Shown here piece by piece: positions 2,905 to 64,000 of a DNA stretch of 64,000 nucleotides. The stretch's first letter is position 1. Each line of letters opens with the position of its first letter. Under the pieces are notes generated by a model. It did no database searches and was not told the DNA's origin. It saw only the letters and a program-made list of their open reading frames with translations. A program made the position numbers and the translations under genes. This DNA comes from Escherichia phage vB_EcoM_G4507: the sequence record NC_054919.1. The stretch is one strand, 5' to 3'.

Positions 2905-2973
2905 GTTATCGAGTTGATGCCATTATATACATCATTTTCTGAGTATGTTTTGTGTGCTTTCAAAATGAAGAAA

Positions 2974-2987
2974 GGGGCCGAAGCCCC
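2974..2987 (-). terminator. Hairpin terminator (ggggcc-ga-agcccc) region downstream/upstream of hoc
   Basis: GC-rich inverted repeat in the intergenic region. Confidence 0.45.
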
Positions 2988-2993
2988 TTATGA

Positions 2994-4412
2994 TTATGGA
3001 TAGGTATAGATGATACCAGTTTCTAAAGCAGTTTTATGAATGATGTATCCATTGCGTGATTCTTGAACATCAACTTCTGGATAGTCTTTCATCATCTTCT
3101 GAAGAGTGTAACGATGCAGGTAGTATTTACTATCTGGATCTTCAGTTTTCCAATCTTTACCTTCTTCGGTCATTTTTTGGATTTCATCCATAACCCACCA
3201 ACCGCACCAGATATAAGCTGAAGTGCGATGTGGAAGAGGATGAACATAAGGCAATTCACCTTCTGGTTCCGGAGCAACTTTATCAGTTACCTGAACTTGG
3301 CCTGTTGCTTTAACTGTTTTACTATCATAGTCGGTTGCTGTAACGGTTGCAGTAACTTCAATAGTTTGACTTCCAATAGATGATGTATCAACCGTGTATA
3401 CATTAGTTGATTCTTCTACAGGAGAAGAATCTTTCTTCCATGAATATTCGATTTGTGCTTCTTCTGGAGCATCCGTAACATTAGCAGTAAATGTAGCCGA
3501 AGCATCTTGCTGAACGTTAATAGAAGGAGGAGTCAATGTAACCTGTGGATTCATTGTCTTCTTATTAACTGTTAATGATACTTCATTAGAAGTAACTTCC
3601 TTTTCATTGTAATTTTCAGCCGTTACTTGGGCTACGCATTTAATTCTTTTTACTCCACTTGTAGTTGGAGTATAGTTAAATGTAGAGTTAGTTTCTCCAC
3701 CAATTTGAGAATCATCTACATACCATTTATATGTAGCAGACGCTCCATCAGGTTGAGAAACCAAGGCAGCAGTAAATTGAACTGGGGTTCCAATTACTCC
3801 AGCTGGAGGACTATCAGGAGTTACTGCCAAGGTAGTTGTCTGCGTCTTTTTATTAACAGTCAGTGACACTTCATTGGAAGTAACTTCCTTTGTATCATAA
3901 TCTGTCGCGGTTACTTGAGCTACGCACTTAATTGTTTTAACTCCGCTTGCGTCAGGAGTGTAATTGAATGTAGTGCTAGTTGCTTCGCCCACAGGAGAAC
4001 CGTCAACGTACCATTGATACGTAGCGTTTGCACCTGATGGCTGTGAAGCTAAGGCAGCGGTAAATTCAATTGGAGTTCCAATCACTCCAGCATCAGGGCT
4101 ACCAGGAGTTACTGCCAAAGTAGTTGTTTGTGTCTTATTTTGAACTGTGATAGTTGTACTAATTTCAGCTGTTTCAGGTTCAGATTCTGCAACTTGATTG
4201 GTTGCAACTACTTTAATAGTCTTTTGACCGGCAGGTCCTTTTAGTACATAACTAAAAGTTGCTGACGTTTCTTCCTGTGGAGCGTCGTCTACAGTCCAAG
4301 CATATGTAATAGGTCCATCTCCAGTTTGACCACTGGGTGTAGCAGTAAACTGCTGAGTCTGATCTATAACTCCAGTAGGTGTTTTAGGAGTTATATCAAC
4401 TGTAAAAGCCAT
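2994..4412 (-). CDS. hoc: Highly immunogenic outer capsid protein Hoc, with four Ig-like domains
   Basis: 472 aa; N-terminus MAFTVDITPKTPTGVIDQTQQFTATPSGQTG and C-terminal capsid-binding tail ...IWCGWWVMDEIQKMTEEGKDW match T4 Hoc; about 96 aa longer than T4 Hoc (376 aa). Confidence 0.85.
   Translation of the reverse strand: MAFTVDITPKTPTGVIDQTQQFTATPSGQTGDGPITYAWTVDDAPQEETSATFSYVLKGPAGQKTIKVVATNQVAESEPETAEISTTITVQNKTQTTTLAVTPGSPDAGVIGTPIEFTAALASQPSGANATYQWYVDGSPVGEATSTTFNYTPDASGVKTIKCVAQVTATDYDTKEVTSNEVSLTVNKKTQTTTLAVTPDSPPAGVIGTPVQFTAALVSQPDGASATYKWYVDDSQIGGETNSTFNYTPTTSGVKRIKCVAQVTAENYNEKEVTSNEVSLTVNKKTMNPQVTLTPPSINVQQDASATFTANVTDAPEEAQIEYSWKKDSSPVEESTNVYTVDTSSIGSQTIEVTATVTATDYDSKTVKATGQVQVTDKVAPEPEGELPYVHPLPHRTSAYIWCGWWVMDEIQKMTEEGKDWKTEDPDSKYYLHRYTLQKMMKDYPEVDVQESRNGYIIHKTALETGIIYTYP
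3561..4136 (-). repeat. Tandem duplication of a 288-nt Ig-like domain unit inside hoc (two diverged copies)
   Basis: Residues 93-188 and 189-284 are near-identical at protein level (KTQTTTLAVTP...EVSLTVNK twice); DNA copies diverged by synonymous changes. Confidence 0.7.
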
Positions 4413-5771: not shown

Positions 5772-7280
5772 ATGGATATTAAAGTACATTTTCACGACTT
5801 CAGCCATGTACGCATCGATTGTGAAGAGAGCACGTTCCACGAATTAAGAGATTTCTTTTCGTTTGAGGCCGATGGATATAGATTTAATCCTCGCTTCAGA
5901 TATGGCAACTGGGATGGACGAATCCGTCTTTTAGATTATAATCGTCTTCTTCCATTTGGCTTAGTCGGGCAAATTAAAAAGTTCTGTGATAACTTTGGCT
6001 ATAAAGCCTGGATTGACCCACAAATTAACGAAAAAGAAGAATTATCAAGAAAAGATTTTGATGAATGGCTTTCTAAATTAGAAATCTATTCAGGAAATAA
6101 AAGAATTGAACCGCATTGGTATCAAAAAGATGCAGTGTTCGAAGGATTAGTTAATCGTCGTAGAATTCTTAATCTTCCAACATCCGCTGGTAAATCTTTA
6201 ATTCAAGCTTTGCTTGCGCGATATTATTTGGAAAATTATGAAGGCAAAATTCTTATCATTGTTCCAACAACTGCTCTGACAACTCAGATGGCTGATGACT
6301 TTGTTGACTATCGTTTATTCAGTCATGCAATGATAAAGAAAATCGGCGGTGGAGCATCAAAAGATGATAAATATAAAAATGATGCACCGGTCGTTGTTGG
6401 TACATGGCAAACTGTAGTTAAACAACCAAAAGAATGGTTCTCACAGTTTGGAATGATGATGAATGATGAATGCCATCTTGCTACAGGAAAAAGTATTTCA
6501 TCTATCATATCAGGTTTAAATAACTGTATGTTCAAATTTGGTCTATCTGGTTCATTACGTGATGGCAAAGCCAATATCATGCAGTATGTTGGAATGTTTG
6601 GTGAAATATTTAAGCCAGTAACGACTTCTAAGTTAATGGAAGATGGACAAGTAACTGAGCTAAAAATTAATAGTATTTTTCTTCGCTATCCCGATGAGTT
6701 CACTACTAAATTAAAGGGAAAAACTTATCAAGAAGAAATAAAAATTATTACGGGGCTTAGTAAAAGAAATAAATGGATCGCTAAATTGGCTATTAAGCTT
6801 GCACAAAAAGATGAAAACGCTTTTGTCATGTTTAAACATGTATCACATGGTAAAGCTATTTTCGATTTAATTAAAAATGAATACGATAAAGTTTATTACG
6901 TATCAGGGGAAGTTGATACCGAAACCCGCAATATAATGAAAACCTTAGCTGAAAATGGTAAAGGAATAATTATAGTAGCTAGTTATGGTGTATTTTCTAC
7001 TGGTATTTCAGTTAAAAATCTGCATCACGTTGTTTTAGCGCACGGTGTTAAATCAAAAATCATTGTATTACAAACAATCGGTCGTGTATTACGTAAGCAT
7101 GGTTCTAAAACAATCGCAACAGTCTGGGACCTCATAGATGACTGTGGTGTCAAGCCAAAATCTGCTAATACTAAAAAGAAATATGTTCACTTGAACTATC
7201 TTTTAAAACACGGCATTGATCGTATTCAGCGCTACGCAGATGAAAAATTTAATTACGTAATGAAAACAGTTAATTTATAA
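5772..7280 (+). CDS. uvsW: UvsW DNA/RNA helicase (SF2, recombination and origin unwinding)
   Basis: 502 aa, same length as T4 UvsW; Walker A-like LNLPTSAGKS and DECH box (MMMNDECHLATGK). Confidence 0.9.
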   Translation: MDIKVHFHDFSHVRIDCEESTFHELRDFFSFEADGYRFNPRFRYGNWDGRIRLLDYNRLLPFGLVGQIKKFCDNFGYKAWIDPQINEKEELSRKDFDEWLSKLEIYSGNKRIEPHWYQKDAVFEGLVNRRRILNLPTSAGKSLIQALLARYYLENYEGKILIIVPTTALTTQMADDFVDYRLFSHAMIKKIGGGASKDDKYKNDAPVVVGTWQTVVKQPKEWFSQFGMMMNDECHLATGKSISSIISGLNNCMFKFGLSGSLRDGKANIMQYVGMFGEIFKPVTTSKLMEDGQVTELKINSIFLRYPDEFTTKLKGKTYQEEIKIITGLSKRNKWIAKLAIKLAQKDENAFVMFKHVSHGKAIFDLIKNEYDKVYYVSGEVDTETRNIMKTLAENGKGIIIVASYGVFSTGISVKNLHHVVLAHGVKSKIIVLQTIGRVLRKHGSKTIATVWDLIDDCGVKPKSANTKKKYVHLNYLLKHGIDRIQRYADEKFNYVMKTVNL

Positions 7281-7292
7281 GGGCTTCGGCCC
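7281..7292. terminator. Short hairpin gggc-ttcg-gccc after uvsW
   Basis: Inverted repeat with UUCG loop. Confidence 0.4.
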
Positions 7293-7305
7293 TTTGGAGA
7301 AAAAG

Positions 7306-20298: not shown

Positions 20299-20334
20299 AG
20301 CCTCTCTAGTGTTTATTCTATTTATAAAATTAAA

Positions 20335-20346
20335 GGCCCGAAGGCC
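20335..20346. terminator. Hairpin ggccc-ga-aggcc
   Basis: Inverted repeat in the alt upstream intergenic region. Confidence 0.4.
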
Positions 20347-20347
20347 T

Positions 20348-20536
20348 TTAATAATCTAGTGGTAAGAGAGTACGGTATATTTCAAACTTTGGACCTTTTT
20401 CATAGGCATCAAATGTTTCTGTGAATTTATTATAAGCATATGCATCTACAAATTCGAGAATGACTTGTGATACAGAAGTAGAAACATCTCCACCTTCTTT
20501 TTGAGCAATGACAATTGTTTCTAAGTAAGCTTTCAT
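20348..20536 (-). CDS. Hypothetical small protein
   Basis: 62-aa ORF overlapping the ligase stop by 4 nt (translational coupling). Confidence 0.5.
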   Translation of the reverse strand: MKAYLETIVIAQKEGGDVSTSVSQVILEFVDAYAYNKFTETFDAYEKGPKFEIYRTLLPLDY

Positions 20537-25128: not shown

Positions 25129-25148
25129 AAGGACTCCCGAAGGAGTCC
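25129..25148. terminator. Hairpin aggactcc-cgaa-ggagtcct
   Basis: 8-bp stem, tetraloop, A-run upstream. Confidence 0.55.
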
Positions 25149-25153
25149 TCAAC

Positions 25154-50194: not shown

Positions 50195-50199
50195 ACTGA

Positions 50200-50217
50200 G
50201 GGAGCCTTCGGGTTCCC
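50200..50217 (+). terminator. Hairpin gggagcc-ttcg-ggttccc after gene 35
   Basis: GC stem with UUCG loop followed by T-run. Confidence 0.55.
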
Positions 50218-50225
50218 TTTTTCTT

Positions 50226-50915: not shown

Positions 50916-55035
<4,120 letters not shown>

Positions 55036-60053: not shown

Positions 60054-60190
60054 AAATTTACCATACTAGTGAATGTAGTGCCATAATAACATCAGAAATG
60101 AAAAGCACGACTTGAATTAATCCGAACATTATTCCGTAATATAACGCTATCAATAAAATAGCAAGGGCTAATGAATAGCCCAAGATTTTC

Positions 60191-60346
60191 TTAATCATTA
60201 GATAACAACACAAATGTTAAATATGCACACATACCTTGGGCTAAAGCCTGCGAAAACACACTGCTGGCATCGATACAGATAGTTAAAACACATGCTACTA
60301 TCCAACAAATAAATGAAATAACTCCTAATAATTTTGCGATATTCAT
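60191..60346 (-). CDS. ac: Ac (acriflavine sensitivity) small membrane protein, 51 aa
   Basis: Hand-translated MNIAKLLGVISFICWIVACVLTICIDASSVFSQALAQGMCAYLTFVLLSND; position between 52 and stp as in T4; coordinates approximate. Confidence 0.45.
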   Translation of the reverse strand: MNIAKLLGVISFICWIVACVLTICIDASSVFSQALAQGMCAYLTFVLLSND

Positions 60347-60353
60347 ATTTTCC

Positions 60354-60434
60354 TCACTGGCGTCCGAAGACGCCTTTAGTTTTAAGATTATTACGATAGA
60401 ACTGCATCACGTGTTCGTTGTGGAAATTACTCAT
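60354..60434 (-). CDS. stp: Stp peptide, 26 aa (activator of the host PrrC anticodon nuclease)
   Basis: Hand-translated [26 protein letters not shown], matching remembered T4 Stp; start overlaps ndd stop. Confidence 0.7.
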
Positions 60435-60892
60435 TAATATGCCTGCAAAACGAATTTAAAATTATCAGCCAACATACGGTTCATTTCTTCAAGTGTTTGA
60501 TACTCAGAATGATGATTACGAGTAAACGCTAAAGCTAACTGTCCTTTTCCAAATCCCGTCGTCAGAGGTTTCATCTTAGAAGCAGGCAGATAAAATACTG
60601 TGTATGGAACATTGTTATTTGCAATAGTACGTGCAAGCTGAGACCGACGTTGACGAATATGACTTAGAACTGCACTGAATCCTTGCTTAGAACGCTGATT
60701 ACCTACATAAAATCGTGCAGACACACATGGATTACTAAATGGACGACCATCTAATTTACTTACTAAAAAGTAAAATCCAGGTTTAGACAAAATGTCTTTG
60801 TGCGGAGTTCCCAAAAACCACTCACCGCCCTTGATTGTACCAATAACAGTAGCGCCTGCGTTATTCAGATCAGTAACAGTCATATATTTCAT
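60434..60892 (-). CDS. ndd: Ndd nucleoid disruption protein
   Basis: About 152 aa from the internal ATG preceded by AGAGGAAATTAAT; [23 protein letters not shown]...; T4 Ndd is 151 aa. Confidence 0.75.
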
Positions 60893-60950
60893 ATTAATTT
60901 CCTCTAAATTATTTTCTACTCCAAGGCCGCATGAATACGCGGCCATTAAA

Positions 60951-61166
60951 TTAATCGTCGCAGTCGACGCTCAATTCCCAAAACTCTTCTACAGTATAAG
61001 TTTCAGTATCATTTTCAATACAGAAACGTTCATTACTATTATTTGCTAAAGTAGCATTAACTGTCGGTTTCTCGCCAGTGCTCTTAAGAGGTGAAATACG
61101 AATTAACTGATCACCATTATCTAAACAAAAAATTTCACCAACTTTTACATCTTTAAAGATTTTCAT
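60951..61166 (-). CDS. Hypothetical protein (ndd.1 region)
   Basis: 71-aa ORF. Confidence 0.5.
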
Positions 61167-61281
61167 AATTCACCTCAGGGAGTATAAAACCCAAATGCAG
61201 TTGTTGACCATCCCATCCAATATGGGAAATTTGCACCAATGTAAAACATAAGAATATAAAACCAAATGTTTAGTAAATTCA

Positions 61282-61500
61282 TCATTTTACACCATTCCAA
61301 ATTGTTTCAACTACGGATTTTAAACCATTTTGATGAATATCAATTCCGACTACTGTCATCAAATAGATTCCAACTACAACTGAACCTAAGGCAAAAATCA
61401 GCATGAAAATGAATAAAGCCGGAAAAATATTATCGAAAAACCATTCAATAAATGTAAAAGCACTGCATTTACGCTTCATATTTTCCTCACATAAATCCAA
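61282..61500 (-). CDS. Small membrane protein, two predicted transmembrane helices
   Basis: 72 aa; hydrophobic stretches IFPALFIFMLIFALGSVVVGIYLMTVVGI. Confidence 0.5.
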   Translation of the reverse strand: MDLCEENMKRKCSAFTFIEWFFDNIFPALFIFMLIFALGSVVVGIYLMTVVGIDIHQNGLKSVVETIWNGVK

Positions 61501-61600
61501 AGTAAACGTTTAATACATCAATCATTAAAACGATTGGGAATATACTCAAAACTATTAGTATTATAACTACATTCCATATAGCTTTAATAATCTTTTTCAT
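61487..61600 (-). CDS. Small hydrophobic peptide, 37 aa
   Basis: Internal ATG after GGAGGAACAGAAA; MKKIIKAIWNVVIILIVLSIFPIVLMIDVLNVYFGFM. Confidence 0.4.
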   Translation of the reverse strand: MKKIIKAIWNVVIILIVLSIFPIVLMIDVLNVYFGFM

Positions 61601-61617
61601 TTTCTGTTCCTCCGTAG

Positions 61618-61658
61618 TTGATAGGGTAATAGTACCACGGAAGAACAGTCTTGTAAAC
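61618..61658 (-). promoter_or_regulatory. Early promoter GTTTAC, 18 nt, TACTAT
   Basis: Minus strand GTTTACAAGACTGTTCTTCCGTGGTACTATTACCCTATCAACTAC; coordinates approximate. Confidence 0.45.
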
Positions 61659-61843
61659 AACTTTTTTAAAAATATTCGTAATAAATGTGAATACCAACTA
61701 CTACCGCTGAAACCTGTGCAACCCACCACGCACAAGCAATAAGTACAGAATTCAAAATTTTCATAATAACCTCATCACAAAAGTAAATGTTAAACAAATT
61801 ACTGGAATACTAATTAACCAAACAAAACACCACCACAGTGAAC

Positions 61844-62107
61844 TCATAGTTCAATCTCAGCGATTTTCATTTCATTATTGTTAATAGCATTTTTAAGACT
61901 ATCCGAAAGAATTACATTCCAGTGGTCATTCATATGACCATTAACTAAGCGTGTAATTTCTTCGGGAGTTGAAAAATAAGGCGTATCAGACTCCCAATGC
62001 GATAATCCTAAGCGAGTATAAATCATACCTTCATCATCGCTAGAATATTCAACTGACACAAACTCATCAGTTATTTTATGCTTAGCATAATAAAATTTAA
62101 ATTTCAT
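61844..62107 (-). CDS. Hypothetical protein (ndd.6 region)
   Basis: 87 aa from the internal ATG after GGAGAGTAAA; preceded by early promoter. Confidence 0.45.
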   Translation of the reverse strand: MKFKFYYAKHKITDEFVSVEYSSDDEGMIYTRLGLSHWESDTPYFSTPEEITRLVNGHMNDHWNVILSDSLKNAINNNEMKIAEIEL

Positions 62108-62130
62108 TTTACTCTCCAAATCAGTATCAG

Positions 62131-62171
62131 TTGATAGTTGTATAGTACCACGGTCCTTGTGGTATGTAAAC
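62131..62171 (-). promoter_or_regulatory. Early promoter GTTTAC, 18 nt, TACTAT
   Basis: Minus strand GTTTACATACCACAAGGACCGTGGTACTATACAACTATCAACTG; coordinates approximate. Confidence 0.45.
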
Positions 62172-62187
62172 TGTTTTGTGAAATTTT

Positions 62188-62745
62188 TTAAATGGAAAGA
62201 TACCATCCGTTGTAGTTGCTTTTTCTTACAACCTTACGAAGGTCTTCTCTGTCACCGATGAACTTCGGAGTGTACTGGATGACACCTGGATGAATTTCTT
62301 TAGTGTTGAATATAATTATACAGTCAGCGACTTGATGATTTAGAATGGGCCCTAGATTTATTCCAGAACCGTATGGATACTCTCCGCTGCATCCTGTTGT
62401 TACAGAAATCCAACGTGAGTCAGTTTGATGTGTCTTAACTTCTACACGAAGCCCGCAGTATTTTGGATGCGCCAATACATCCCATGCATATGTGTACGGA
62501 TCATCGACATCTTCTTGACCTTTGTTAACATACCCGCTCAGCCAATCTGCTACAAAAAACTCTGCGTACACAGCGATACGGCATCTTTCGATAACTTCTG
62601 CCTTATCCTGATTTGGGTTTTGTTTTAAAGAGTATCTTGCAGTATCAGCAATTTTGACCTTCATTTCACTGGTCAAGTCACTGTTCGATAGGGTAAATGA
62701 CGGAATCTGAAATAGTCTCTGTAGCCCAGGATTCGTTTTCTGCAT
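62188..62745 (-). CDS. denB: Endonuclease IV (DenB), cytosine-DNA-specific ssDNA endonuclease
   Basis: 185 aa, same length as T4 DenB; position between rIIB and ndd. Confidence 0.7.
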   Translation of the reverse strand: MQKTNPGLQRLFQIPSFTLSNSDLTSEMKVKIADTARYSLKQNPNQDKAEVIERCRIAVYAEFFVADWLSGYVNKGQEDVDDPYTYAWDVLAHPKYCGLRVEVKTHQTDSRWISVTTGCSGEYPYGSGINLGPILNHQVADCIIIFNTKEIHPGVIQYTPKFIGDREDLRKVVRKSNYNGWYLSI

Positions 62746-62810
62746 TTAAACTTTCCTTTATGTCGGAATCACTGATATTCATATAAATCATAATTTCTCT
62801 TAAAACAAAA

Positions 62811-62822
62811 GGGCCGAAGCCC
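62811..62822. terminator. Hairpin gggcc-ga-agccc, copy A of a flanking 20-nt repeat
   Basis: aagggccgaagcccttattt is identical to the sequence at about 63037-63056. Confidence 0.5.
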
Positions 62823-62827
62823 TTATT

Positions 62828-63022
62828 TTATTTGAATTGTGCAATTCTTTTCTCTAAACAGTCAGCATAAGATTTCATTGAGATAAACTGCGAAAGTAAT
62901 AGTTCTTGCTCAACTGCGTTAACTGTTAGAAATTTTGCGCTTTCTAAAAATTTACTCAGTGCATTAATTTTGAGCATTAATTGATCGTATTCTTCTTTTA
63001 CTCGTGCTTGATAACCTAACAT
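62828..63022 (-). CDS. Hypothetical small helical protein between rIIB and denB
   Basis: 64-aa ORF bracketed by identical hairpin repeats. Confidence 0.5.
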   Translation of the reverse strand: MLGYQARVKEEYDQLMLKINALSKFLESAKFLTVNAVEQELLLSQFISMKSYADCLEKRIAQFK

Positions 63023-63038
63023 AATTTTCCTTAGTTAA

Positions 63039-63050
63039 GGGCCGAAGCCC
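63039..63050. terminator. Hairpin gggcc-ga-agccc, copy B of the flanking repeat
   Basis: Same 20-nt unit as at 62809-62828. Confidence 0.5.
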
Positions 63051-63989
63051 TTATTTAAATTGTTCAGTAACGTCTTCAACTACTTCGTATTGGCAGGTAC
63101 GCATTTTAGCATCGTTGTAATCAATCGGAATTGATACTACATCGCGAGGATGAACTTTAACTTTTACGACTCGGCTGGTTGAACTGCCAAAGTGACGAAT
63201 ATAAGATTTAGAACACACATGCAGACCACGAGAACAAGTTTGTGTATCATCGTCATTCACACGAGTACGCGGCATTTTAACTACTTTACCAGGACTGTTA
63301 TCAAAGGTGTTTGAGTGACAGTCAAAGTAGTTGTCACGAACTACTTTCCAAGCATAGAAGTAACCATCTTCTGTAATTTCAATATCGTTTGCTACCAAGA
63401 AATCAAAGAGTCGAGATACCGCTTTCTGGCTTGGGTTTTCCAGCAGATTTTCCAAGAACGGAAAATAAAATTCAAAGTTTTCGCCTTTTTCCATCGAGTC
63501 AAGAATACGATCAACCAAACCAGATCGCAATTCAATATTTTGATAGAACAAGCTTCCACCTTCAATTCGAACATCGCCAGAAATATATTTTTCAACAGCG
63601 CGCCGAACATTAATTTTTTGCGCAGCTTCTTCCAGCTTATCCGCTACAAGCAGATTAAGAATTTCCTGGAAGTTTGAATGAGTATTAGGAGTTGCGTTAT
63701 AAGTTACACCGTCAACAGTAATTGAAATGAATTTTTTAGATGCATTCCAAATAATGTCAGATTTAGCAACTGGAGCAATAACTGCATCGCTATTAACTTT
63801 AACTGTAATATCACCGCTAATAGTAACTTTAGGGCGTTTAGCTTCTTCAGCATTTTTCAAAACACGACGGATTGTGTCAACCGATACACCTTGCCAATCA
63901 GCCAATTCCTGCTGAGTGTAATTACCACTTGAATACAATTTAACAATTTCAGCTTGTTCGTTTTTGGTCAGGCATTTAATATTGTACAT
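63051..63989 (-). CDS. rIIB: rIIB membrane-associated protein (rapid lysis / Rex exclusion phenotype)
   Basis: 312 aa, same length as T4 RIIB; N-terminus MYNIKCLTKNEQAEIVKLYSSGNYTQQELADWQGVS. Confidence 0.95.
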   Translation of the reverse strand: MYNIKCLTKNEQAEIVKLYSSGNYTQQELADWQGVSVDTIRRVLKNAEEAKRPKVTISGDITVKVNSDAVIAPVAKSDIIWNASKKFISITVDGVTYNATPNTHSNFQEILNLLVADKLEEAAQKINVRRAVEKYISGDVRIEGGSLFYQNIELRSGLVDRILDSMEKGENFEFYFPFLENLLENPSQKAVSRLFDFLVANDIEITEDGYFYAWKVVRDNYFDCHSNTFDNSPGKVVKMPRTRVNDDDTQTCSRGLHVCSKSYIRHFGSSTSRVVKVKVHPRDVVSIPIDYNDAKMRTCQYEVVEDVTEQFK

Positions 63990-64000
63990 AATTTTCCTTA

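Follow-up and report, generated by a model that had tools for sequence, protein, structure and literature searches.

The stretch of Escherichia phage vB_EcoM_G4507 analyzed here (NC_054919.1; 64,000 nucleotides, referred to below as the window) belongs to a Tequatrovirus, and its rIIB-denB segment is 96-98% identical to T4-like phages. Three genes follow one another on the minus strand: rIIB (63051-63989, 312 aa), an ORF of 64 aa that starts with ATG (62828-63022), and denB, encoding endonuclease IV (62188-62745, 185 aa). The rIIB gene was assigned from the ORF list and by homology to annotated T4-like records; its protein matches T2 rIIB at 100% identity, 494 phage records hold it at 95% identity or more, and relatives carry the annotation rIIB. 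The denB product is likewise DenB in relatives' annotation. An earlier note, made from the sequence alone, had described this neighborhood as a small ORF between rIIB and denB, and homology to T4-like records identifies the flanking genes as just these. A further ORF of 37 aa on the minus strand (62678-62791) overlaps the start of denB. It is the remnant of a DUF7418 gene whose full-length form in RB32-type relatives encodes 109 aa and matches PF24193 (E 9e-36); alignment shows that the 37-aa form arose through the in-frame loss of about 216 nt, with its own Shine-Dalgarno sequence (SD) and ATG retained directly after the second hairpin described below.

The 64-aa ORF is flanked by two identical 20-nt copies of AAGGGCCGAAGCCCTTATTT (62809-62828 and 63037-63056, plus strand), as the earlier note had observed, and the pair extends to 26 nt at 92% identity. 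The shared 20-nt stretch has the palindromic core AAGGGC-UUCG-GCCCUU. The copies do form hairpins, although the stem is not the gggcc/ggccc pairing proposed in the note: it is GGGC/GCCC with a 4-nt loop that reads CGAA on the plus strand and UUCG on the sense (minus) strand. Both copies therefore read GGGC-UUCG-GCCC in the sense direction, a UUCG tetraloop closed by a C-G pair.

Hairpin 1, proximal to rIIB (UAAGGGC-UUCG-GCCCUUA; 63036-63053, minus strand), has a 7-bp stem (-10.9 kcal/mol), the first three bases of which are the rIIB stop codon UAA. It has no U-tract on the sense strand, where the tail is ACUAAGGAAA (ACUAAGG), and a terminator scan flagged it on the antisense strand only. The SD of denB.1 as read from the sequence, AAGGAA (63027-63032, minus strand), lies 4 nt upstream of the ATG and is left free by this hairpin rather than sequestered. 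In hairpin 2, distal to denB.1 (AAGGGC-UUCG-GCCCUU; 62809-62824, or 62802-62824 with its tail; minus strand), flanking AA/UU pairs lengthen the stem to 6 bp (-11.9 kcal/mol). Its tail, UUGUUUU (62802-62808), together with the paired UU makes up UUUUGUUUU, giving the shape of a canonical intrinsic terminator. The scan flagged hairpin 2 on both strands, including the sense strand, and both hairpins are annotated as (putative) terminators in G10400. The note's description "terminator-like" was apt. A search of 62500-63300 against Rfam matched no family. The two intergenic regions flanking denB.1 measure 28 nt and 36 nt from stop codon to ATG.

The denB.1 gene and its product

The 64-aa ORF is the T4 gene denB.1, a known, conserved and expressed accessory gene. 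The T4 orthologue (T4p277, UniProt P39251) has the same position and length, and the label denB.1 is carried by the orthologues in vB_SsoM_113, T6 and RB14. The protein, which falls in phrog_774, is 95-98% identical to those of T4, T2, T6 and the RB phages, differing at one or two positions from most relatives, and 16 residues are invariant in orthologues from eight genera. Its match to PF21825 ("crAss001_48 related", helical hairpin) scores 68.4 bits (E 5e-19), which exceeds the family's gathering threshold of 24.8, with residues 4-61 aligned to profile positions 3-60 of 61. An AlphaFold2 model with a pLDDT of 96.8 places helices at residues 3-26, 29-33 and 36-61, and on this model the denB.1 product is a small two-helix hairpin protein of PF21825. 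Sequence searches of the PDB, run both with the protein and with a profile of 24 sequences, returned nothing below E 0.008, a search of NCBIfam with the protein gave no match, and Foldseek of the model against the PDB found generic helical hairpins only, none at E ≤ 0.001.

In T4, both RNA and protein of denB.1 have been detected, and the RNAs of rIIB, denB.1 and denB are classed as early, middle and middle, respectively (PMC9697503 Table S2). The name "denB.1" was found in the literature only in a genome paper, "crAss001_48" gave no matches, and denB is absent from the main text of the CRISPRi-ART and HIDEN-SEQ T4 screens. Many GenBank records call denB.1 an "endonuclease", a label that lacks any support. 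The gene is kept universally in Tequatrovirus while being dispensable in the laboratory, which makes it a candidate for functional study.

A genome-wide family of C(UUCG)G hairpins

The hairpins at this locus belong to a larger set. The motif GGGCTTCGGCCC occurs five times in the window as against none in 100 shuffles, and C(UUCG)G hairpins with stems of at least 4 bp number 14. Nine of these begin between -5 and +4 nt relative to the stop codon of a same-strand ORF of at least 50 aa. A third identical copy of the 16-nt core lies 55 kb away (7279-7294, plus strand), and the near-identical variants AAGGGGCUUCGGCCCCUU are found at 2972-2989 (minus strand) and 54231-54248 (plus strand). On these sequence counts, the identical core is a genome-wide consensus and not a repeat private to the two sides of denB.1. 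Exceptional stability to heat and reverse-transcriptase stops count among the hallmarks of the T4 family of such hairpins. Both hairpins are present in T4 itself and are therefore orthologous members of the T4 family; the CUUCGG hairpins of T4 are described as especially abundant in its intergenic regions (Tuerk et al. 1988, PNAS 85:1364, as cited in PMC8948821). Full identity over 20 nt is confined to G4507 and G10400, since the second hairpin differs by 1-nt indels in T4 and RB32-type relatives.

The same counts bear on the possibility that the palindromes arose by chance, or that the ORF is no real gene. The short length of repeat and ORF is all that speaks for such a reading. Set against it are the motif count, the conservation of the ORF over eight genera with its invariant residues, the Pfam match, the confident fold and the detection of the T4 protein, which together refute it and leave its probability close to nil.

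The pattern of conservation at hairpin 1 points to selection on its structure. The intergenic region that holds it is 100% conserved in five relatives whose flanking genes differ there by 2-9%. A hairpin directly follows rIIB in ten genera, with different stems and compensatory changes: double changes occur at all seven pairs, and 91% of the alignment cells are paired, a percentage inflated by the anchoring of loops by hand. None of 500 shuffles attains the score observed.

We considered whether hairpin 2 might have been copied from the rIIB hairpin, stop-codon context and stem-loop together, by a local duplication or gene conversion that would imply no mobility of the gene. Identical copies do occupy adjacent gene boundaries, and by a rough estimate two of the three identical 16-nt copies would fall on adjacent boundaries about 6% of the time under random placement. 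The likeness also reaches beyond the stem, with CAATTYAAATAA (Q-F-K-stop) preceding both hairpins apart from a 5-nt AATAA indel and a similar AAG(G/A)(A/G)AAATTATG following both, and the sister genera Dhakavirus and Gaprivervirus have no hairpin 2. However, [QRY]-F at the end of the denB.1 product and TEQF in rIIB are ancestral, each within its own protein family, and these ancestral C-termini explain most of the apparent extension of the repeat into the coding ends. The SD-spacer-ATG strings are equally similar in unrelated hairpin-bearing intergenic regions, and the distant copy at 7279-7294 is just as identical. Moreover, hairpin 2 has since acquired indels in T4 and RB32-type phages, in contrast to the invariant hairpin 1, and this indicates that no conversion is ongoing. 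We regard a local copying event as unlikely, though worth keeping in mind.

Presence and absence of genes at the rIIB-denB junction

The earlier note had proposed that recombination between the two hairpins inserted the ORF as a cassette, and had suggested a search for empty sites bearing a single hairpin. The arrangement hairpin-denB.1-hairpin is present in all 495 Tequatrovirus records, with no empty site among them; within the genus, this is the uniform presence that the note itself had set against its proposal. Between genera, such sites do exist. In Mosigvirus (153 records) and Jiaodavirus (135 records) the order is rIIB, one hairpin, DUF7418 and denB, with no denB.1, and the single hairpin of Mosigvirus has a 3' U-tract and SD resembling those of hairpin 2.

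These single-hairpin sites would be expected if the direct-repeat hairpins excise and insert denB.1 in the manner of a promoter-less PeSL (promoter-early stem-loop), a cassette known from T4-type phages. In Cronobacter phage S13, two identical 26-nt hairpins at the same rIIB/denB site enclose an unrelated ORF of 71 aa, and the first of them is followed by a promoter-like sequence. Excision and mini-circles have been demonstrated experimentally for PeSLs in RB49/phi1 (PMC2839356, PMC4122927). PF21825 is also present in early regions of unrelated Autographiviridae, so that the gene was at some time transferred between phages.

Several observations nevertheless count against mobility driven by the hairpins. 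The gene occupies the rIIB-denB position in at least eight genera, of which four lack the downstream hairpin and one the upstream hairpin; Dhakavirus, Gaprivervirus and Kanagawavirus have denB.1 without the downstream hairpin, and Moonvirus has it without the upstream one. In the rIIB tree, both genera without denB.1 branch from within those that have it, a topology that implies two losses and no insertion, and as judged from this sequence comparison denB.1 is ancestral at its position. Klebsiella phage Biddle, which among the relatives with denB.1 is closest to Jiaodavirus, lacks the second hairpin, and hairpin-hairpin recombination is thus unnecessary for the loss in Jiaodavirus. (The record of the Slopekvirus-like Klebsiella phage Earwig starts within the locus and is uninformative.) A repeat homology of 16-20 nt is short for T4 homologous recombination.

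Breakpoints do not coincide with the hairpins either. The sole visible recombination tract, identical to G10400 over 62725-63167, overshoots both of them, and a laboratory T4 deletion that removes denB.1 (X04376) ends at a ribosome-binding-site microhomology and not at a hairpin. With the hairpin core spread over the genome and the gaps around denB.1 free of promoters (see below), we consider it doubtful that the hairpins mobilize denB.1 as a cassette.

A related version of this idea takes the bare, promoter-less C(UUCG)G hairpins as minimal recombination modules, through which denB.1 would have been excised precisely in Mosigvirus and Jiaodavirus, leaving a chimeric hairpin, and the cargo swapped in S13. 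We think this improbable; were it true, the presence of denB.1 in all 495 Tequatroviruses, in spite of the direct repeats around it, would point to strong selection for DenB.1 function.

The note's broader description of a plastic region was correct. Across 12 lineages, denB.1 and the DUF7418 gene are present or absent between rIIB and denB independently of one another, and hairpins at the gene boundaries there are gained and lost. The comparison provides a clean picture of one hyperplastic junction.

Proposed role of the hairpins and comparison with known systems

No sigma-70-like site was found in either short intergenic gap or on the minus strand of 62530-63270, and no combination of a MotA box with a -10 pattern on the minus strand of 60108-64000; a middle promoter for denB.1 was rejected on these grounds. 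Since no internal promoter is recognizable, we suggest that rIIB, denB.1 and denB form a single transcription unit served by promoters upstream. Hairpin 1, with no U-tract, would mark and protect the 3' end of the rIIB message and attenuate read-through, and may not terminate transcription at all. Hairpin 2, with its UUUUGUUUU tail, could act as a leaky intrinsic terminator closing the rIIB-denB.1 message. Because denB has no promoter of its own, any termination at the hairpins must be partial. Together the two hairpins would cause denB.1 and denB to accumulate later than rIIB; the early and middle RNA classes of T4 give an indirect hint of RNA ends at this site, but may instead reflect differential decay or an unrecognized promoter. 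The identity of the two hairpins would follow from a consensus, AAGGG(G)C-UUCG-G(C)CCCUU, under selection across the whole genome, with a local copy event as a possible added contribution.

An RNA-level attenuator or terminator combined with a 3' stabilizer is thus the most likely function of the hairpins, as far as their sequence and position allow it to be predicted. A known, expressed gene set between ordinary UUCG hairpins speaks for the normal punctuation of T4 genes and not for a fresh cassette. We assign a probability of roughly 0.8 to the reading that this is an ordinary rIIB-denB.1-denB segment of Tequatrovirus, in which hairpins of the C(UUCG)G family act in the mRNA and are not scars of insertion. 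The gene, the CUUCGG hairpins (1988) and exchangeable ORFs bracketed by stem-loops (PeSLs, 2010 and 2014) have all been published, and with gene, hairpin family and bracketing idea already known the locus has little value as a discovery.

Among known systems, a moron, that is, an insertion of promoter, gene and terminator, shares a terminator-like hairpin with this locus, but no promoter is present here and the gene is ancestral at its position. With PeSLs (Arbiol et al. 2010, PMC2839356; Comeau et al. 2014, PMC4122927) the locus shares its layout. In both cases an intergenic stem-loop in a region of high plasticity precedes the SD and ATG of a small accessory ORF, and repeats on both sides of the ORF provide the geometry that gives excision in RB49/phi1, which the S13 locus also fits. 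A PeSL exchange has been proposed for the nearby ndd.4/ndd.5, between T4 and PST (PMC2839356, PMC4122927). PeSLs, however, are conserved over about 100 bp, as compared with about 16-20 nt for the hairpins here. The gaps of only 28 and 36 nt leave no room for a promoter between stem-loop and SD, and none was found in them by the minus-strand scan or the MotA pattern, so that the composition that defines a PeSL is lacking and we rejected this identity for the hairpins. Furthermore, the flanked ORF is no ORFan; its presence is invariant among close relatives, with single-hairpin empty sites only at genus distance.

The likeness to intrinsic terminators differs between the two hairpins. Hairpin 2 is similar, a G+C stem-loop followed by UUUUGUUUU, with an A-rich stretch upstream that gives it a bidirectional look, whereas hairpin 1 has no sense-strand U-tract; the stems here are short, with four G-C pairs. 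The closest match is provided by the C(UUCG)G intercistronic hairpins of T4, which have the same loop and closing pair on a G+C stem of 4-7 bp, are likewise placed between a stop codon, which they follow directly, and the next SD, and occur in many copies per genome. The two hairpins that flank denB.1 show no difference of substance from them.

Organization of the rIIB-denB.1-denB locus

The 64-aa ATG ORF listed at 62828-63022 (minus strand) carries the label denB.1 in vB_SsoM_113, T6 and RB14. In the sense direction it follows a 312-aa ORF, rIIB (63051-63989, minus strand), and precedes a 185-aa ORF, denB (62188-62745, minus strand); the annotation of both neighbors in relatives bears out the gene neighborhood given in the earlier note. 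Identity to T4-like phages across the interval is 96-98% (98.1% for vB_EcoM_G10400, 96.9% for T4), and every feature at the locus is orthologous to an already known T4 feature.

Reading of the sequence together with the ORF listing across 62400-64000 confirms that denB.1 is bracketed by identical repeats: AAGGGCCGAAGCCCTTATTT (plus strand) lies at 62809-62828 and again at 63037-63056, and a repeat finder extends the match to 26 nt at 92% identity. The repeat is not a product of chance: the window holds five copies of GGGCTTCGGCCC, whereas 100 dinucleotide-preserving shuffles gave none. Each copy forms a hairpin, as had been proposed, but not in the suggested gggcc/ggccc arrangement; on the minus strand both share the core AAGGGC-UUCG-GCCCUU, with a 4-nt loop. 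Hairpin 1, the rIIB-proximal copy (63036-63053, minus strand), has a 7-bp stem, UAAGGGC/GCCCUUA, which begins with the rIIB stop codon. Hairpin 2, after denB.1 (62809-62824, minus strand), has a 6-bp stem followed by UUGUUUU (62802-62808). The two dominate the predicted local folds, at -10.9 and -11.9 kcal/mol, respectively.

DenB.1 scores 68.4 bits with Pfam PF21825 ('crAss001_48 related protein'), for which the cut-off is 24.8, and also matches phrog_774, a PHROG without known function. Orthologues from eight genera align over their full length with 16 invariant residues, and an AlphaFold2 model made with 24 homologues (pLDDT 96.8, very confident) is a helical hairpin in which residues 3-26 and 36-61 form the main helices and 29-33 a short one. 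Foldseek comparison of this model with the PDB returned only generic helical hairpins, none at E ≤ 0.001, and PDB sequence and NCBIfam searches were uninformative. For T4 DenB.1 (T4p277, 167743-167937, P39251), time-resolved omics detected both RNA and protein, each classed as 'middle' (PMC9697503 Table S2). Many GenBank records, including comparison records L001 and L004, name the orthologues 'endonuclease' or 'putative endonuclease'; none of the searches made supports this name, which is apparently bleed from denB in k-mer annotation. In OL964735, two ndd-region ORFs (locus positions 71-526 and 587-802) bear the name 'naphthalene 1,2-dioxygenase', which likewise has no support from any search. 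In T7-like Autographiviridae, small free-standing genes encode homologues of 36-44% identity (Vibrio phage 15E36.1, L018:2501-2695; Providencia phage MTT, L019:2501-2692), and the family is therefore common to unrelated phage groups; in the annotated 15E36.1 record the PF21825 gene lies near the left end, at 5.8 kb of 45 kb.

Directly after hairpin 2, a 37-aa ORF (62678-62791, minus strand) was recognized by comparison with L003:1174-1503 as the remnant of a DUF7418 (PF24193) gene. Its first and last residues are those of the 109-aa RB32-type protein and of the 94-106-aa genes of other genera, and T4-type phages, including the one studied here, have lost about 216 nt from within the gene by an in-frame deletion. 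In T4-type and RB32-type phages alike the 3' end of this gene and the 185-aa denB frame overlap, although in RB32-type records the annotated denB starts at an internal Met (158 aa).

A dispersed hairpin family and its predicted roles

Scanning of the 64-kb window found 14 hairpins with a C(UUCG)G loop and four or more stem pairs, for example at 27-46 and 50198-50219 (plus strand) and at 20329-20352, 25129-25150 and 60359-60374 (minus strand). Relative to the stop of a same-strand ORF (50 aa or longer), nine of the 14 start at -5 to +4 nt, the stop codon is often part of the stem, and for several the next start codon lies 12-50 nt on. Because a third exact copy of the 16-nt core, AAGGGCTTCGGCCCTT, identical to both around denB.1, is found at 7279-7294 (plus strand), and AAGGGGCTTCGGCCCCTT-type variants at 2972-2989 (minus strand) and 54231-54248 (plus strand), the denB.1-flanking copies are members of a dispersed, strong-consensus family. 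They belong to the C(UUCG)G family that Tuerk et al. (1988, cited in PMC8948821) described in T4; no Rfam family matches the region.

Because three copies are identical and several more nearly so over a span of 60 kb, a shared selected consensus is the simplest explanation of why the two hairpins are identical. It is also possible that a local copy event produced the pair, as their position on adjacent gene boundaries and the similarity of their flanks (CAATTYAAATAA upstream, SD-ATG downstream) might suggest. The terminal Q/R-F residues, however, are ancestral in both protein families, unrelated junctions show SD-spacer-ATG strings that resemble each other as closely, and hairpin 2 of T4 and RB32-type phages has changed by 1-nt indels, evidence against ongoing conversion.

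As the unit has no recognizable internal promoter, the simplest arrangement would have rIIB, denB.1 and denB read from the rII promoters as one transcription unit. Functions for the hairpins can be proposed from sequence. Hairpin 2 with UUUUGUUUU has the form of an intrinsic terminator in a terminator scan and is annotated as one in G10400; it would have to be leaky if denB is to be expressed. Hairpin 1 is without a U-tract; its invariance, the stop codon in its stem and the SD left free 9 nt downstream would fit a 3'-end stabilizer or attenuator. In T4, rIIB RNA is classed as early and denB.1 and denB RNA as middle (PMC9697503 Table S2); attenuated read-through would produce this difference, but so could differential decay. 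In the antisense (plus-strand) reading (62809-62834 and 63036-63062), T-rich tails ATTTTATTTG and TTTAAATTGT follow the hairpins, and both are flagged as terminator-like on that strand; they might stop antisense transcription across the minus-strand gene block.

History of denB.1 at the rIIB|denB junction

The earlier note had proposed that recombination between the hairpins inserted the ORF as a cassette. Among T-even genomes, empty sites are absent within Tequatrovirus, and single-hairpin ones appear only at genus distance. All 495 matching records cover without a break a 276-nt query that spans denB.1 and its two hairpins, in agreement with the 494 records having rIIB at ≥95% identity and the 494 having DenB.1 at ≥90%. 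Within the genus this is the uniform presence that the note had named as refuting its proposal. Fixed empty sites with exactly one hairpin occur in 153 Mosigvirus and 135 Jiaodavirus records. In a neighbor-joining tree of rIIB, Mosigvirus groups with Tequatro-, Dhaka- and Gaprivervirus, and Jiaodavirus is sister to the denB.1-bearing Klebsiella phage Biddle; on these placements two losses of denB.1 are far more parsimonious than at least five gains. The gene already stood between rIIB and denB in the common ancestor.

The plasticity attributed to the region is evident in the junctions extracted from 12 further lineages. RB32-type Tequatroviruses carry hairpin, denB.1, hairpin and the 109-aa DUF7418 gene, where T4-type phages have the 37-aa remnant. 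In Dhakavirus, Gaprivervirus, Kanagawavirus and Biddle, DUF7418 follows denB.1 after 0-7 nt, without a second hairpin. Winklervirus X20 has two hairpins unlike in sequence around denB.1, then DUF7418; those around denB.1 in Mosugukvirus PM2 also differ (loops UCAG and GCAA). In Moonvirus KM16 the rIIB stop overlaps the denB.1 start (TAATG) and the only hairpin follows denB.1. Mosigvirus and Jiaodavirus have a hairpin and DUF7418 without denB.1, and Krischvirus has different genes, without denB.

The hairpin after denB.1 is phylogenetically patchy. A hairpin directly 3' of rIIB is present in 10 genera with differing stems; in an alignment whose loops were anchored by hand, which favors pairing, all seven pairs show double (compensatory) changes and 91% of cells pair, and no shuffle reached the covariation score observed with this anchoring. 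The 28-nt rIIB-denB.1 spacer is 100% conserved in five Tequatroviruses whose flanking genes differ by 2-9%. Spacer conservation and compensatory changes across genera indicate that the structure after rIIB is old and under selection.

Four further observations speak against hairpin-mediated insertion. The window is identical to G10400 over 443 nt (62725-63167), with flanks 2-4% divergent (37 mismatches in rIIB); this block, which we read as a small mosaic tract, overshoots both hairpins and ends inside rIIB and inside the denB/DUF7418-remnant overlap. The classical T4 deletion in X04376.1, a 1986 record joining the rIIB 3' end to gene 52, spares hairpin 1 and removes denB.1 through ac; its junction, GGAAA/TTTATG, fuses the ribosome-binding site of denB.1 with the start of gene 52 and uses AAAT/TTATG microhomology (…GCCCTTAACTAAGGAAA/TTTATGCAACTG…). 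This record also lacks one G, reading GGCTTCGGCCC, perhaps through a sequencing compression in the hairpin. The DUF7418 deletion, too, is away from any hairpin, and Biddle, nearest to the Jiaodavirus empty site, has no second one. Insertion of denB.1 by hairpin recombination is thus not supported, given its presence in 495/495 records, the rIIB tree and these breakpoints. The gene persists in every Tequatrovirus, despite being dispensable in the laboratory.

Comparison with PeSL cassettes

The cassette idea is essentially the promoter-early stem-loop (PeSL) model set out by Arbiol et al. (2010; PMC2839356) and Comeau et al. (2014; PMC4122927). There, ORFans lie between composite elements of about 100 bp that combine a promoter with a stem-loop; the elements recombine, mini-circles are excised, and a single element stays behind where the site is empty. 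The latter study applies the model to the ndd.4/ndd.5 exchange, about 1 kb from denB.1. The promoter defines the class, and the denB.1 locus is without it: the stop-to-ATG gaps of 28 and 36 nt hold no sigma-70-like site on the minus strand, and no MotA-box pattern was found on that strand across 60108-64000. The locus is therefore not a member of the PeSL class, and would at most function in the manner of a degenerate, stem-loop-only PeSL. It is possible, though not likely, that promoter-less CUUCGG hairpins served as points of deletion or exchange in Mosigvirus, Jiaodavirus and Cronobacter phage S13. In S13 (L017), identical 26-nt hairpins, AAAAGGACTCTTCGGAGTCCTTTTTT, at 2826-2851 and 3164-3189 flank an unrelated 71-aa ORF between rIIB and denB, and the first is followed by a promoter-like TTTACA…TACTAT. 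Its matching hairpins, the promoter-like sequence and the unrelated cargo make the S13 junction resemble a true cassette; judged on these features, it looks much more like a genuine PeSL-type element than the denB.1 locus does.
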